From an uncultured bacterium (GTDB taxonomy: Bacteria; Chlamydiota; Chlamydiia; Chlamydiales; FEN-1388): a stretch of DNA of 64,000 bases. The notes beneath the pieces were generated by a model that saw only the letters and a program-made list of their open reading frames with translations, had not been told where the DNA came from and did no database searches. The translations under genes were made by a program, and so were the position numbers. Position 1 is the first letter of the stretch; each line of letters opens with the position of its first letter. This document shows positions 9,561-59,346 of this stretch, one piece after another. The stretch is from the NCBI GenBank assembly GCA_964409235.1, contig CAYPCN010000001.1:157520-221519 (forward strand), read 5' to 3'.

Positions 9561-9712
9561 CGAACAGATTCTACCAATGCGGACCTGTATACATGGCCGC
9601 GACTTGCCATTCCAAATGCGGCCTATCGATCTACATTGAGAAGCGCGATGCTACATTTTCGGGAACTGCGGCTGTACAGTTTCAAGAATATGCTGCACAT
9701 TGCACATGGCTC
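9561..9712 (+). repeat. Degenerate copy (F) of the dispersed intergenic arm/core repeat family, in the pkn5-cdsC spacer
   Basis: It shares cgaacagattctac with 41969-41983. It has a GCGATG(c)TACATTTTCGGGA core-like segment, and arms gccattccaaatgcgg (9606-9621) and gcacattgcacatggc (9695-9710) that are roughly reverse-complementary. Confidence 0.35.
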
Positions 9713-12867: not shown

Positions 12868-12960
12868 CAGGCGATATCCGCCAACGAGAATTTTCGTGAG
12901 CCACTGGCGGTGTTTCTTTTGGAGGACAGAGTAGGCTCTTTGTCCCTGTTTGCGATCCTG
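12868..12960 (+). repeat. Degenerate copy (E) of the dispersed repeat family, in the ABC permease-cdsQ spacer
   Basis: gagccactggcggtgtttcttttggagg (12898-12925) resembles the 5' arm plus core gagccattcgcgatgtggatttttagagg. It is preceded by caggcgatatccgccaacgag, which resembles the 3'-arm motif. Confidence 0.35.
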
Positions 12961-23116: not shown

Positions 23117-23210
23117 CAAAAGGCCGTATATCGAGCTATCCCAAAACCGATGAAGTCCATATGCACTGACATATGGGCGAGGAGGTTTTGGGAAAGGCAC
23201 ATCGCAGTTT
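23117..23210 (+). repeat. Degenerate copy (D) of the dispersed repeat family, in the chaperone-sctD spacer
   Basis: caaaaggccgtatatcgagctatcc and ggaggttttgggaaaggcacatcgca match the 3'-arm motif (AAAAGGCAyATCGCA) and the GGTTTTGGG core segment of copies A and B. Confidence 0.4.
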
Positions 23211-24654: not shown

Positions 24655-24695
24655 GGCCTTTTTCCTCCTCTAAAAACCCGCGTCGTACGCGGCTC

Positions 24696-41587: not shown

Positions 41588-41659
41588 AGCGGGCGATGGG
41601 GATTGAACCCACGACACTCACGTTGGCAACGTGATGCTCTACCACTGAGCTACGCCCGC
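41588..41659 (-). tRNA. tRNA-Gly (anticodon GCC)
   Basis: A manual cloverleaf fits: acceptor GCGGGCG/CGCCCGC, D arm GCTC-AGTGGTA-GAGC, anticodon arm TCACG-TTGCCAA-CGTGA and T arm GTGGG-TTCAATC-CCCAT. No CCA is encoded. Confidence 0.95.
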
Positions 41660-41661
41660 AA

Positions 41662-41734
<73 letters not shown>

Positions 41735-41983
41735 GTACGAATACCCATCAAGGGACACTGCGTAATGCAAAAAGCGTACAAGGAGAGCGCAAATTTCTGC
41801 AACGGTATACACGCGATGTCTCGTACCAAAGTTTTATCTCTCTCGACAAAGGAACAATGTCGTTCCTGCCAAGAAAAAACGGGTCATGATCGATCGAAAA
41901 CGAGACTGCAGTTCAGAATCTTGCTTGGTGTACCTTCTCCTCTGAAACCCTGGGTTGACCATCCACCTCGAAACAGATTCTAC

Positions 41984-42016
41984 TCTATCTTCCTCAAGGC
42001 ACATCGCAAATGGCTC
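41984..42016 (+). repeat. Orphan 3'-arm module of the dispersed repeat family
   Basis: ctctatcttcctcaaggcacatcgcaaatggctc is a direct repeat of 42206-42237 (ctctatccttcaaaaggcatatcgcaacggctc). It is also complementary to the 5' arm at 42133-42150. Confidence 0.55.
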
Positions 42017-42132
42017 AAAAAGGATGCTCCCAAAAAAAATCATGATTCTGCTTGCAGAAAATCAAAAAGTTTTGCGAATAACGCTGCAGTGATCAAAGCA
42101 ATCACGAGCCTCGTGCGCTCTTGGATCCTCAA

Positions 42133-42238
42133 GAGCCATTCGCGATGTGGATTTTTAGAGGGGAAGTGGAAGGTTTTGGGTAGATTCGGCCAAAAAGATC
42201 CCAACTCTATCCTTCAAAAGGCATATCGCAACGGCTCC
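42133..42238 (+). repeat. Dispersed intergenic repeat, copy A (5' arm + conserved core + 3' arm)
   Basis: The 5' arm plus core gagccattcgcgatgtggatttttagaggggaagtggaaggttttggg recurs at 51426 and 59159. The 3' arm aaaaggcatatcgcaacggctc can pair with the 5' arm (about 15 bp, including G-U pairs, one mismatch and one bulge). Confidence 0.7.
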
Positions 42239-42432
42239 TCAAGATTTCCTGCGCTCTAGGCGGTCCTTGGGAGCGATAAGCACATGGTGCGTGTTCACGC
42301 CATCTCAGAAGTGGGAGGGCAAAGAGGGGGCAGTTTCTGAAGGATTGACAAGAAGGAGATTGTCCACCTCGGTCAACTGGCTTTCAGAGCCGAGAGCTGC
42401 GAACGCGTACAAACGATGAGTGGAGAAGAGAA

Positions 42433-45400
42433 ATGGAAGCTGTGTCAGAGTCCGTCCTGAACTTTCGCAAGATGCGCCACGATTTTTGTCCGGCTGTCTT
42501 GAAGGAAGGGAAAGCGCTGTTCGAAAAAGGGTCATGCATAGGGGCAAAAATCGCCTCGTTCTCTGCTCAGCAGTTTGTCATTGAAGCAGAGGTGACGGGC
42601 CATTTTCAAGATACTCATTCATGCTCTATTGAAGTAGATCGTGTAGAGTCTGTGGTGATGTACTCGACCTGCGACTGCACGCAAGGCGTGGATTGCCTCC
42701 ACCTTGCCTGCCTGCTATTTTTCCTCGAAGCGCACTTCCATTCCATGCTCCTCACATACCTTGGAAACATACGCGAGAACTCCTCTGCAGACCCAGCAAT
42801 CGTCGAAGTAGAGAGAAAGGTGCACGCAAGAGCTCGCAAAGAACAAGAACGGCAGCTGATAGCAGATTACTCAAAGGCAGGGGAGTGGATGGGGCGGACG
42901 TCGCTGTTCCACGAAGCACATGCGAAAATAGAGACCGGCGAACTCTTGATTGCCATCGGTCCTTGGAATGGGTTGAACAACCGCCTGACAGAAATCCAGC
43001 TTGCTGTCAAGCTGACCGGCCGCCCTAAGCCTGTGTGTATCCAGCAGCCAAAGGCGTTCCTCCTCGCCCTCCAGCAGCTTGAGCCCCTGATCTTGGGAAG
43101 CCAACGCGTCGTACTCGATGACTCCTCATTCGGAGAGGGATGCGTGCCGCTCATCGATTTTTTCAGGCGCGAGTTTGAATACCATGACAAGGCGGATAAG
43201 ACCACCAAAGCTGGATTTTTGTCCCAGACAGCGGTGTTCTCTCTTCTCAGTCGGGCAGCAACGCTCCTGAAAAACCCTCAACAGGCGCGCATCTGCCTGT
43301 TCATGGGGTCGTTCGACCGCCCTCTACAAGTCTCTTCGACATATGTGCGTCCTCATTTTTCAGTGGAAATGCTGCATGAGACCGAGCGGAGGCTCGTCAT
43401 CAAACCAAGTTTTATGCTGCCAAAAGGAATGCTGCCGCTTGCCGACGTCAAACTCATTGTGGCCTCGCCACCAGGAGTGCTGTCAGAAGATATCTACTAT
43501 CCTCTTGACCCTCAGTTTTCCCTTCGACAGGCCATAGACCTTGCAGAAGTGGATCACTATGTCATCCCAGAAGCCCTGTTCCCAACCTTTGTTGCATATG
43601 CGCTCCCTCATCTGCAAAAAATAGGAGAGGTCCACTTGCCTGAAGCGTTCGAACAGATTCGTCAGGCGTTGTACCTCGTCGATCCTACGGCCGTATGTGA
43701 AGCCGACCTCCACGATGGGGAGCTGAGCGTTCAGCTTGCGTTCCGATACGGAGATGTCGAGCTTCCCGAGGTGCGCAAAGAACACTCGCTCGAAGAGATC
43801 AGCGCCCTCTCGCAAGGCACGTGTGAAGTGCCAAGAAACCTCATGAAGGAGTTGCTCTTAAGCCAGGAACTGCTATGGGGGCTTGCCCCCGATGACAAAG
43901 AGGGCCGCTATACGACGAAATCGGAAAAGAGAATCATCGACTTTGTCAGCGAGACGTTGCCATCGTTGAAAGAGCGAGTCGAGTGGAAGCTCAGCGATGG
44001 GATGCAGCGATGCTTCTGCTTCGACGAATCCAAGCTCTGCCTGACTTTTTCCGAGGGAAATCGGCATGGCATCGTGCGATGTCGGCTGCAAGCATCAGGG
44101 CCTCTGGCAGGCCTTGACGTGGCCAAGGTGCTCGACGCTGCTCGATTTCGGCGTTCCTATATTGAATTAGGGACCTCAGAAAAAGGAGTGTTCAGCAAGA
44201 AGCTTCTCATCCTCCCGCAGGACGAGATCGAAGCGCTCAGCCTATTGATCGAAGATTTTGCCATTCCTTCTTTGAAGAATCATGAGGAGTGGACCCTGCC
44301 GCTGTGGAGCATCGTCGGCATCGCAGAGGGCGCGACGATCGCCAAACAGGTCACAATAGCATGCAACAAAAAGATCCAAGAGCTGCAGGCAACGCTTTTC
44401 GATCCAAAAGAGACAGCCCAAACGCCCATTGCGGCCCGTTTCAAAAGCGTGTTACACCCCTATCAGCGCGATGGCGTTCGGTGGCTGCGCCGGCTGCGGG
44501 AATTCGGGTTAGGAGGGATCCTTGCCGATGACATGGGGCTTGGAAAGACGGTTCAGGCGATCTGTGCGCTTTCTGAGATCCATTGCTCAGGCAACAAAGT
44601 GCCACCTTCGCTCATCGTCTGCCCCACGTCACTGGTCGACAATTGGAAAGAAGAGATCAATCGCTTTGAACCCAACTTAAAAGTCGTGACCTTTGTGGGT
44701 GCACCCGGAGAGCGACGAAAGCTCCTAAGCCAGAAGAGCGGTGTCGACGTCTATGTCACGTCGTATGGATTAATCCAGCGAGATCTCGAGCTCTTCGAGC
44801 CTCTTCCATTTTCCTACGTCATCCTTGATGAGGCGCAGGCGATTAAAAACCGAGAGACGCGCAATGCCCGCTCTGTCAAACGTCTTAACGCTGACTACCG
44901 ACTTGTGCTTACTGGAACTCCTATTGAAAACTCTCTTGAAGATTTGTGGAGCTTGTTCGACTTCCTCATGCCGGGGTTCCTGTGGTCTCATGATCGATTT
45001 TTGCAAACGTGTGTGCGCGCTTCAGGGAAGGAGACCGCCTTTGAGATGCTCAAAAATCGAGTGGCGCCATTTGTACTGCGGCGCATGAAGCAGGACGTCC
45101 TCGACGACCTGCCGTCGATCTCGCATATTATCTACCACTGCTATCTCCATGATGAGCAGCAGGAGATGTACCACATGGCGGCGAAACGGGCCAAAGAGGA
45201 GTTGCTCGACCTGGTCGAACGCCAAGGGTTTGAGAAAGCTCACCTCCATGTCTTAGCGACGCTGACCCGCCTTAAGCAAATCTGCTGCCACCCCTCGCTT
45301 GTCCACAAAGAGGAGTCAGCCGTTGTCCGCTCAGCAAAATATGAGATGCTCCAGGATCTGTTGGAAGTCCTCATCGGTAGTGGTCATAAGACGGTTATCT

Positions 45401-51425: not shown

Positions 51426-51537
51426 GGGCCATGTGCGATGTGGATTTTTAGAGGGGAGGAGGGAGAGTTTTGGATCGAGCTACCACAAAACCGACGAAGC
51501 CCATCAAAAAGATCCTAGGGCGTATCGCAAGTGGCTT
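51426..51537 (+). repeat. Dispersed intergenic repeat, copy B
   Basis: gggccatgtgcgatgtggatttttagaggggaggagggagagttttgg is followed by the 3' arm agggcgtatcgcaagtggctt. The arms can form about 16 pairs with one mismatch. It lies 69 nt upstream of tRNA-Leu. Confidence 0.7.
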
Positions 51538-51605
51538 GGTGAGTTTGTCATTGAAGGCAATATAAACAGAGCGATATAGTCATTTCTCTTCGGGTTTCTG
51601 CATAT

Positions 51606-51689
51606 GCGAAAGTGGCGGAATTGGTATACGCGCTACTTTGAGGTGGTAGTGAGGGTGACCTCGTGGGGGTTCAAGTCCCCCCTTTCGCA
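51606..51689 (+). tRNA. tRNA-Leu (anticodon GAG), class II with a long variable arm
   Basis: A manual cloverleaf fits: acceptor GCGAAAG/CTTTCGC, anticodon arm CTACT-TTGAGGT-GGTAG, variable arm TGAGGGTGACCTCGT and T arm GGGGG-TTCAAGT-CCCCC. Confidence 0.95.
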
Positions 51690-51727
51690 GTCCATTCCAT
51701 TCTACACCGTCTGGTTGCACGCGCCGC

Positions 51728-51763
51728 CTCTATCCTCCAAAAGGCACATCGCTCCAAGGACTC
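51728..51763 (+). repeat. Orphan 3'-arm module of the dispersed repeat family, just downstream of tRNA-Leu
   Basis: ctctatcctccaaaaggcacatcgctccaaggactc closely matches 41984-42016 and 42206-42237. Confidence 0.5.
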
Positions 51764-52447: not shown

Positions 52448-52521
52448 GCACCGATAGCTCAATCGGATAGAGTACCTGGCTTCGAACCAGGTGGTTGGAG
52501 GTTCGAGCCCTCTTCGGTGCG
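52448..52521 (+). tRNA. tRNA-Arg (anticodon UCG)
   Basis: A manual cloverleaf fits: acceptor GCACCGA/TCGGTGC, anticodon arm CCTGG-CTTCGAA-CCAGG and T arm GGAGG-TTCGAGC-CCTCT. Confidence 0.95.
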
Positions 52522-58650: not shown

Positions 58651-58824
58651 GGCCTCACTCACGAGATTTTTGATGATACGGTCTGATCCACCATCTTGGC
58701 AAGCGGTCTGCACACCTACCTCAGATCGAAAATTCGCGAAAAAAGTTGAAAAATCTGTTGCAGAATATAGCGAACGTTGACTAACAATCAGATACAGATC
58801 CAAAAACATAGAAGGAGACTCTGT

Positions 58825-59097
58825 ATGTCCTTTCAAGACACCATCAAGGAGATTCGCTCATTGCTCGCAGGGCTGACGATCGATATTGAGAAAGCAGCCA
58901 ATGGGAACAAAGCTGCTTCTCAACGCGTCCGAACGGGCACAATCAAACTCGAAAAGGCTGCCAAACGATATCGCAAAGAGTCGATTAAAGCTGAAAAGTC
59001 GGGAAGCTTCAAAAAGCCCTCAGCGAAAAAGGCTTCAAAAGCAAAGCCAGCCAAAAAAGCAAAAGTGGCTCCAAAACACTCAGGGAAAAGACGCTAG
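58825..59097 (+). CDS. hctA: Chlamydial histone H1-like nucleoid protein Hc1
   Basis: GNKAASQRVRTGTIKLEKAAKRYRKESIKAEK closely matches the Hc1 core I recall (GNKAAAQRVRTESIKLEKIAKVYRKESIKAEK). It has a Lys/Ala-rich tail and a GAAGGAG SD upstream of the ATG at 58825. Confidence 0.9.
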   Translation: MSFQDTIKEIRSLLAGLTIDIEKAANGNKAASQRVRTGTIKLEKAAKRYRKESIKAEKSGSFKKPSAKKASKAKPAKKAKVAPKHSGKRR

Positions 59098-59158
59098 TCT
59101 GTGACAGGAGTGCTCTTTTGTTCCCCTAGCATAGGGGCCATGTAAGGAAAAGAGCTTT

Positions 59159-59323
59159 GAGCCATTTGTGATGTGGATTTTCAGAGGGAGGATGAAGATT
59201 TTTCGATTGGTTTTTCCCAGCCTGACGAACCTCATATTCTCTGAGGTATGTGGGAGGGATGGGTTGGGAAGCACCGGTCAAGAAGATTCATCTTTTTCTT
59301 AAAAGGCGCATTGCAAATGGCTT
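59159..59323 (+). repeat. Dispersed intergenic repeat, copy C (between hctA and the rumA-like gene)
   Basis: gagccatttgtgatgtggattttcagagggagg is followed by the 3' arm aaaaggcgcattgcaaatggctt. The arms can form 17 contiguous pairs, about five of them G-U wobbles, with a loop of about 126 nt. Confidence 0.7.
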
Positions 59324-59346
59324 TGTTGTTGTAAACGGATGCCTGT

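Follow-up and report, generated by a model that had tools for sequence, protein, structure and literature searches.

The spacer between a pair of tRNA-Gly genes and a SNF2-like helicase gene in an uncultured member of the Chlamydiales (lineage FEN-1388) holds a short palindromic repeat that recurs twice more in the stretch of 64,000 nt analysed here. This stretch, which we call the window, corresponds to C1:157520-221519 of a 1.46-Mb assembly of 54 contigs with 51% GC. The three copies, A (42133-42237), B (51427-51538) and C (59159-59323), all lie on the plus strand. Their common 5' core is GAGCCATtyGyGATGTGGATTTTyAGAGGG, and their common 3' end, ...GGCryATyGCAA(r)yGGCTy, is the reverse complement of the first 17 nt. 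Within the core, one 23-nt piece is found twice in the window without a mismatch, where 0.00 occurrences are expected. A sequence-only reading of this DNA had already pointed out the three copies and the pairing of their arms, and both are present as described, with 15 of 17 arm positions paired in A and all 17 in C. That reading leaned towards a family of small RNAs and listed a mobile element, decayed integration scars and protein-binding sites as other options. We interpret the segments as copies and decayed halves of a single family of miniature inverted-repeat transposable elements (MITEs), mobilised by an IS1182-like transposase and now immobile, and put the probability of this interpretation at about 90%.

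Copy A is a 105-nt short form whose central module is deleted (nhmmer E 3.8e-25; alignment to the long consensus given below), and in the same alignment its right terminal inverted repeat (TIR) has a 1-nt deletion. It is bracketed by CTCAA at 42128-42132 and again at 42238-42242, read from the sequence as a target-site duplication (TSD). Only short, spurious frames are found among the open reading frames (ORFs) that cross it, and as RNA it folds to -37.4 kcal/mol on the plus strand and -31.9 kcal/mol on the other, with a z score of -3.6 on either. On its tRNA side stands an orphan right half of an older MITE (41953-42016, plus strand), made up of the right subterminal region and a complete right TIR; the nhmmer match covers 41969-42014 (E 1.4e-7), with 41/46 identity to consensus positions 122-168 and a score of 36 against a shuffle maximum of 15. 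Copy B, directly upstream of a tRNA-Leu gene, is a long form with internal deletions (nhmmer and consensus alignment; fold z -1.7): consensus positions 80-121 and 134-147 are missing and the aligned columns are 90% identical. Beyond the tRNA gene follows an orphan right subterminal fragment (51727-51752, plus strand; nhmmer E 1.9e-4), whose TIR is truncated after CACATCGC and which is identical to consensus positions 134-159 at 25/25 sites, with a score of 25 against a shuffle maximum of 13. Both orphan arms had been noticed before, and both are real. Copy C, recognised by nhmmer, alignment and fold, is a diverged long form of 165 nt between an hctA-like and a rumA-like gene. The spacing of 66-126 nt between the core and its 3' module, reported earlier as a variable of the family, thus reflects a short form in A, a long form with two internal deletions in B and a diverged long form in C.

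Degenerate copies had also been proposed in three spacers of the type III secretion genes, and two of them hold. At 23129-23207 (plus strand; score 53, shuffles at most 16) the long-form central module, consensus positions 48-111, runs directly into a portion of the right TIR, and the consensus alignment shows the left arm to be lost. At 12897-12941 a solo right arm lies reversed, on the minus strand (score 30, shuffles at most 14; nhmmer E 1.3e-4). The third, at 9561-9712, is not retained: its score of 15 is below the 16 that shuffled sequence can reach. A weak left-arm remnant that the earlier list lacked, at 24656-24695, is likewise reversed on the minus strand (score 18, shuffles at most 15; nhmmer E 0.023). 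The assertion that all copies share one orientation therefore fails within the window, and it fails genome-wide, where complete elements number 37 in plus and 38 in minus orientation (assigned by identity to the long consensus, n = 75); the small sample in the window accounts for it.

What kind of repeat is this? The genome-wide search proposed by the sequence-only reading, carried out with BLASTN and three rounds of nhmmer over the contigs of the genome, found that further copies exist: 174 non-overlapping nhmmer matches resolve into 89 complete elements and ~60 solo halves. Together they amount to 15.2 kb, or 1.04% of this reduced genome. Their share of the DNA left over by the gene calls is ~8.5%; the calls are crude, being the longest ORFs of 100 aa or more that do not overlap one another. 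All context statistics given here use these calls, which missed hctA and thereby misclassed copy C as a divergent-spacer copy. Although the genome is 88% coding, 79 of the 89 complete copies are intergenic. Divergent spacers are favoured, 26% of them holding copies against 16% of tandem and 12% of convergent ones.

Complete copies measure 79-170 nt; their lengths form clusters at ~80-105 and ~150-167 nt, and the most frequent length is 166 nt. The long consensus, 168 nt, reads GAGCCATTTGCGATGTG GATTTTTAGAGGAGAAGAGGGAGATTTTTGG [ATCGAGCTACCCCAAAACCGACGAAGCCCATATGCCCTGACATATGGGTGAGGAGGTTTTGG] GTAGATTCGGCCAAAAAGATCCTACTCTATCCTCCAAAAGG CACATCGCAAATGGCTC, where GAGCCATTTGCGATGTG and CACATCGCAAATGGCTC are the left and right TIRs of 17 nt; across 75 copies, 1013 of 1275 TIR positions form Watson-Crick pairs. 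The entire element is an imperfect palindrome, and the consensus folds to -96 kcal/mol on one strand and -86 kcal/mol on the other. Short forms lack the central part, with deletion end-points that vary from copy to copy, as expected of an unstable long palindrome; several of these deletions fall between TTTTGG direct repeats.

Insertion has left a clear footprint. In the k-mers flanking the 75 elements with both ends placed, identity per position between left and right 5-bp flanks is 59%, compared with 27% (maximum 31%) when the right flanks are shuffled, and 18 of the 75 elements have exact 5-bp duplications where 0.36 are expected. The signal is confined to k = 5 at offset 0, with none at other lengths or offsets. 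The duplicated targets are AT-rich (32% GC in a genome of 51% GC) and have no fixed sequence. Small size (under ~300 bp) without coding capacity, TIRs, a TSD of fixed length, dispersed copies in both orientations and, as described below, ends shared with an autonomous insertion sequence (IS) are together the marks of a MITE, and the mobile-element option of the earlier reading is borne out.

The option favoured by that reading, a family of structured small RNAs in which each copy is transcribed from the plus strand and its hairpin kept by selection at the RNA level, we regard as very unlikely. It grew from the remark that differences between copies mostly preserve pairing by wobble on the plus strand. 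For the copies at hand the remark was accurate: transitions, counted as C>T and A>G versus G>A and T>C, are skewed towards G.U-compatible changes at 8:0 in B (p = 0.008) and 18:3 in C (p = 0.0015), and these are the two most transition-skewed copies of the genome. However, neither skew survives correction for 75 tests, and the plus strand of this region has a positive GC skew of 0.07-0.10, which predicts an excess of C>T without selection. A plus-strand RNA under selection should tolerate G.U but not A.C mismatches, and family-wide the two types are about equally frequent: 176 versus 155 in all stems (p = 0.27), 103 versus 94 outside the TIRs with orientation by the long consensus, and 75 versus 76 within the TIRs under the initial orientation by a short-form hidden Markov model (HMM). 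Counted in the sense of the mRNA they stand at 69 versus 51 (p = 0.12). The plus strand does fold somewhat better, for the consensus as well as in 52 of 75 copies (mean difference -4.7 kcal/mol), but both strands fold. In co-directional spacers the plus strand of the element matches the gene strand in 22 cases versus 10 (p = 0.05), and the copies in such spacers show G.U and A.C at 44:27 (p = 0.057); resting as they do on crude gene calls, these two figures are hints. Double changes that keep pairing number 27 against 15.8 expected, but 10 of the 27 trace to a single T/G polymorphism between subfamilies at TIR position 8, at which G-C is seen no more often than chance predicts, and there is no covariation beyond it. 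A search of Rfam returned only four tRNAs in the window at gathering score and no match to the elements, with nothing at E <= 1 in 41900-42300. Equal frequencies of complete elements in the two orientations also speak against an RNA family, and the 5-bp TSD and the matching IS show that the copies spread as DNA.

The tRNA-side arms had further been suspected to be decayed attachment (att) sites or integration scars. In the window, tRNA genes do neighbour two of the three full copies, and genome-wide copies are present in 15 of 49 spacers adjacent to a tRNA gene and in 103 of the 609 remaining spacers (odds ratio 2.2, p = 0.03), so the adjacency noted earlier is correct for the window and mild beyond it. 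The enrichment may reflect long, permissive spacers. An integration scar should repeat the 3' end of the tRNA, yet the window holds no such repeat, the best off-target matches being 11-17 nt long with E >= 0.05. The tRNA-side arms align to halves of the MITE, and ~130 other loci of the family are away from tRNA genes; we consider the chance that these are att scars to be next to negligible.

An IS with the same ends was found by scanning metagenome contigs for the 17-mer. Contig Ga0079037_100137758 (L189) carries at 81-1866 an element of 1786 bp whose 17-nt TIRs are perfect. Its single ORF, of 466 aa, matches DDE_Tnp_1 (1.3e-17) and DUF772 (4e-7) in Pfam. Among NCBIfam models the ORF matches IS1182 (5.9e-34, 117.8 bits), IS5 (1e-13) and IS982 (1.7e-7, 31 bits), which makes IS1182 the best family for this transposase by 20 orders of magnitude. 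Six more contigs (L165, L195, L188, L155, L167 and L136) encode transposases that are 52-90% identical in protein, and three of them (L165, L167 and L195) contain a complete IS of 1746-1970 bp with the same 17-nt ends. IS copies with these ends vary from 47% to 65% GC, and the one on L195 has the direct repeat TGACTC at its ends. IS1182-type elements are 1.3-2 kb in length. The length of the IS, its single DDE ORF and 17-nt TIRs, and the 5-bp TSD of the MITEs are within the traits of the IS1182 family, for which direct repeats of 2-60 bp are recorded (PMC7335449). The likeness between IS and MITE reaches past the TIR: the right end of the IS, ...CATCCAAAAAAGAGGCACATCGCAAATGGCTC, and that of the MITE, ...ATCCTCCAAAAGGCACATCGCAAATGGCTC, share ~35 nt. 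Both MITE arms resemble the right end of the IS and not its left end, which fits an inverted duplication of one IS end, and we infer that the arms arose in this way from the right end.

Could the parent belong to another family or sit in this genome? Derivation from an IS982-family element is highly unlikely. Its transposases share the DDE_Tnp_1 superfamily with the one found here, and there is the weak IS982 match noted above, but 31 bits is far under both the NF033520 cut-off of 130 and the 118 bits of IS1182. IS982 members are ~1 kb long, whereas the parent IS measures 1.75-1.97 kb and encodes a 466-aa transposase. Moreover GAGCCATTTGCGATGTG, starting GAGCC, does not fit the signature of IS982 ends, 5'-AC(N)6T(N)5TT (PMC7335449). 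In the genome itself, tblastn found no homologue of the transposase (E > 2), and no pair of TIRs 1-4 kb apart encloses a transposase. Seven TIR pairs spaced 1.4-2.3 kb (C21:6012-8054 and six others) were considered as full-length IS copies and rejected: they enclose ordinary host genes, among them dnaA, htrA, mutS, rpsB-tsf and a transporter. The DDE_Tnp_1 transposases that the genome does possess were rejected as parents since their ends differ; they comprise an intact IS5-family IS with TIR GGCGTTGTTGCGTAAATC (C30:173-1129) and a second, partial IS5 copy on C53, an IS1634-family ORF just past the end of the window that is truncated where the contig stops (C1:221560-222721), and a pseudogene (C3:88974-89465). 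A MITE arm lies directly beside the IS5 copy, at C30:1250-1266. In a plasmid collection, matches to the IS transposase are mostly distant (24-29% identity, one annotated as IS1182). Far closer than these is an unannotated stretch of a record for an Enterococcus faecalis plasmid (LR962052.1, 15399-15920), with 58% identity over the last 176 aa of the transposase.

Abundant, palindromic, intergenic repeats are also typical of repetitive extragenic palindromes (REPs) and their mosaic arrays (BIMEs), which are served by a REP-associated transposase (RAYT) of the IS200/IS605-type Y1 class, and of Correia/NEMIS and ERIC elements. Correia elements come in two size classes, which the ~105- and ~166-nt classes of this family recall. 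We think membership in any of these groups exceedingly unlikely. The Y1 transposase domain PF01797 has 0 matches in this genome, while control genomes were positive, and elements of 80-168 nt are not the 20-40 nt of a REP. A 5-bp TSD contradicts the REP/RAYT view, and the ends match a DDE transposon. The consensus had no match in 28 of 30 related genomes, a comparison that included no Neisseria or enterobacterial genome.

Set beside known systems, the family has several partial counterparts. Correia/NEMIS elements of Neisseria are likewise abundant, intergenic, palindromic MITEs with full-length and internally deleted classes, placed near genes where they can be co-transcribed. They have 26-bp TIRs, a TA duplication and documented effects through RNase III and promoters; to our knowledge they have no parent IS and are restricted to Neisseria. 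The family described here differs in its 17-nt TIRs, its AT-rich 5-bp TSD without fixed sequence, its copy-specific deletions and its identified type of parent IS. RUP of Streptococcus pneumoniae (with IS630-Spn1) and ERIC/IRU of enterobacteria are imperfect palindromes of ~100-130 bp in spacers, presumed to be mobilised in trans by an IS transposase; in sequence, TSD and IS family all are probably unrelated to this family. Closest in kind are the IS1182-family (ISMac2) MITEs of Methanosarcina acetivorans, 160-169 bp long with inverted repeats of 25-26 and direct repeats of 0-4 (PMC3852290). Both families consist of many non-coding copies of ~160 bp with TIRs, a short target duplication and the ends of an autonomous IS of the IS1182/IS5 type. 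Ours differs in its chlamydia-like host, 17-nt TIR, 5-bp TSD and whole-element palindrome, as well as in having no autonomous partner in the genome and a transposase that is only distantly IS1182-like, under the NCBIfam cut-off.

How far does the family extend, and how old is it? Neither the same-genus genome (G001) nor any of 28 other relatives gave a match to the consensus. A genome of another genus in the same family (G003) carries about five elements of ~165 nt whose interiors are 73-76% identical to the consensus. In these elements (L002, L004 and L006) both TIRs have changed together, to GAGGTATTCCCGTTGTG and CACAACGGGAATACCTC, a hint that their transposase partner is a related yet distinct one. 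Homologues of the transposase occur in 7 of 401 chlamydial genomes sampled, and in one of these (G385) an IS of 1773 bp is bounded by the related ends GAGCTAATTGCGATGTC. Outside the phylum, the same 15-17-nt end GAGCCATTTGCGATGTG is present at 82 and 58 sites, respectively, in two metagenome-assembled genomes (MAGs) of Planctomycetota, JBMCUM01 (contigs L012, L016, L027 and L102) and JBDREM01 (L034, L063, L078, L092 and L106). There it bounds palindromic MITEs of ~55-220 nt, many of them at contig ends, which resemble the chlamydial family in their identical end and differ from it in host phylum and in their GC-rich, unrelated interiors. The same end around unrelated interiors points to independent births of MITEs from one IS lineage. 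No transposase stood beside the TIR at the planctomycete loci inspected, and a transposase of 38% identity that one of the two MAGs encodes was rejected as a partner, being without the TIR. Elsewhere, the scan of genome contigs for the 17-mer gave mostly chance matches. Within the present genome the median identity to the consensus is 89% and no two long copies exceed 90%, which indicates that the burst of insertion is old. Two sites could be compared with orthologous spacers that are free of a copy: the tig-tRNA-Gly-SNF2 spacer lacks one in 11 syntenic relatives and the hctA-rumA spacer in the 4 relatives examined, both sets including the same-genus genome, although the spacers are too diverged to yield a clean empty site. 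The gene order shared with relatives at these two sites, like the type III secretion genes, agrees with a chlamydia-like host.

The surroundings of copies A and B offer some further observations. Scans for promoters and terminators around copies A, B and C returned nothing attributable to the elements, and no consensus promoter in or at the copies. The tRNA-Gly(GCC) and tRNA-Gly(CCC) genes (41588-41734, minus strand; ARAGORN and Rfam) are context outside copy A. In the spacer that separates them from the SNF2-like gene, which is otherwise diverged in the same-genus genome, a 40-nt block at 42052-42090, CTTGCAGAAAATCAAAAAGTTTTGCGAATAACGCTGCAG, is near-identical between the two; it may be a promoter or regulatory site of the helicase gene. 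A similar motif, TTGCAGAAATT, faces the tRNA-Gly genes at ~41790-41805. Copy A stands between the block and the start codon of the SNF2-like gene at 42433 and may therefore be within its 5' untranslated region (UTR). The tRNA-Leu(GAG) gene (51605-51690, plus strand; ARAGORN and Rfam) has copy B on its upstream side and the truncated right-arm fragment on its downstream side (window 51427-51752). With MITE remains on both sides of the gene, this spacer was struck at least twice. A promoter-like site lies at 51551-51580, between copy B and the tRNA gene, and a tRNA-Arg gene follows at 52448-52521 (plus strand; ARAGORN).

Copy C merits separate consideration. It begins 61 nt past the stop codon of the Hc1/HctA-like histone gene (58777-59097, plus strand) and ends 23 nt before the rumA-like gene, also on the plus strand. 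At 73-76% likeness to the consensus it is ~25% diverged. Nevertheless its plus strand folds into a near-perfect hairpin that includes 15 G.U pairs and reaches -76.9 kcal/mol (z -7.8), versus -45.1 kcal/mol for the minus strand. This fold, together with the 18:3 skew of transitions towards pair-preserving changes, is what selection on a transcribed plus-strand hairpin would produce; alternatively, the skew may stem from regional strand-biased C>T mutation, a view that the positive GC skew of the plus strand given above supports. When the flanks are joined without copy C (window 59098-59346), they form a hairpin, GCUCUUUU..AAAAGAGC, followed by UUUGUUGUUGU, so the MITE may have split the intrinsic terminator of the hctA-like gene. 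The same-genus genome has a classical terminator at the hctA position, with a 19-bp stem and U8, and no MITE. It is conceivable, though we think it rather unlikely, that a few copies have been co-opted as RNA hairpins, copy C being the clearest candidate as a replacement terminator or 3'-end stabiliser. The 22:10 and 44:27 ratios given above for co-directional spacers point weakly in this direction as well. If true, copy C as the hctA terminator would be a tidy case of MITE co-option beside a developmental gene.

We propose the following model for the family. The master form is a non-coding imperfect palindrome of ~166-168 nt, from which shorter forms arise by heterogeneous central deletions. 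The DDE transposase of an IS1182-like IS with the same ends probably mobilised the elements in trans, and cut-and-paste insertion, as the chemistry is likely to have been, would have placed them in AT-rich 5-bp targets that were duplicated in the process. The arms are presumably the transposase-binding ends, and only in this narrow sense does the earlier suggestion of protein-binding sites apply. With the transposase absent from the assembled genome, the family would now be immobile and decaying in place, mostly between genes, and the orphan arms would be what deletion has left of older copies.

Several points weigh against this model. Mobility is read from sequence traits, no transposition event having been observed. 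The IS1182 score of 117.8 bits is below the NF033551 equivalog cut-off of 270, and the transposase matches model positions 251-480 only, that is, the catalytic half; the family label is consequently approximate, and the parent is IS1182-like and not a curated member. As the assembly is in 54 contigs, an IS could have been collapsed at contig ends. The flanks of the IS copies on L195, L155 and L165 have no close match to this genome, and the genes flanking the exact-TIR IS copies have no close chlamydial match. Finally, the plus-strand hairpin of copy C is better than simple decay predicts.

What are the implications for this genome and its lineage? The elements are an ordinary kind of mobile DNA, one whose type of parent IS is identified. 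A search of the accessible literature found no paper on MITEs in Chlamydiota, and a named family with an identified type of parent IS would be a modest addition to it. In practice, ~150 loci can be masked as one MITE family, and there is no need to chase them as small RNAs, operators or att sites. More broadly, a single IS lineage has become widespread and has produced MITEs on more than one occasion. In the genome studied here, a burst of insertion with later loss of the transposase matches what one would expect of an intracellular lineage that subsequently became isolated.

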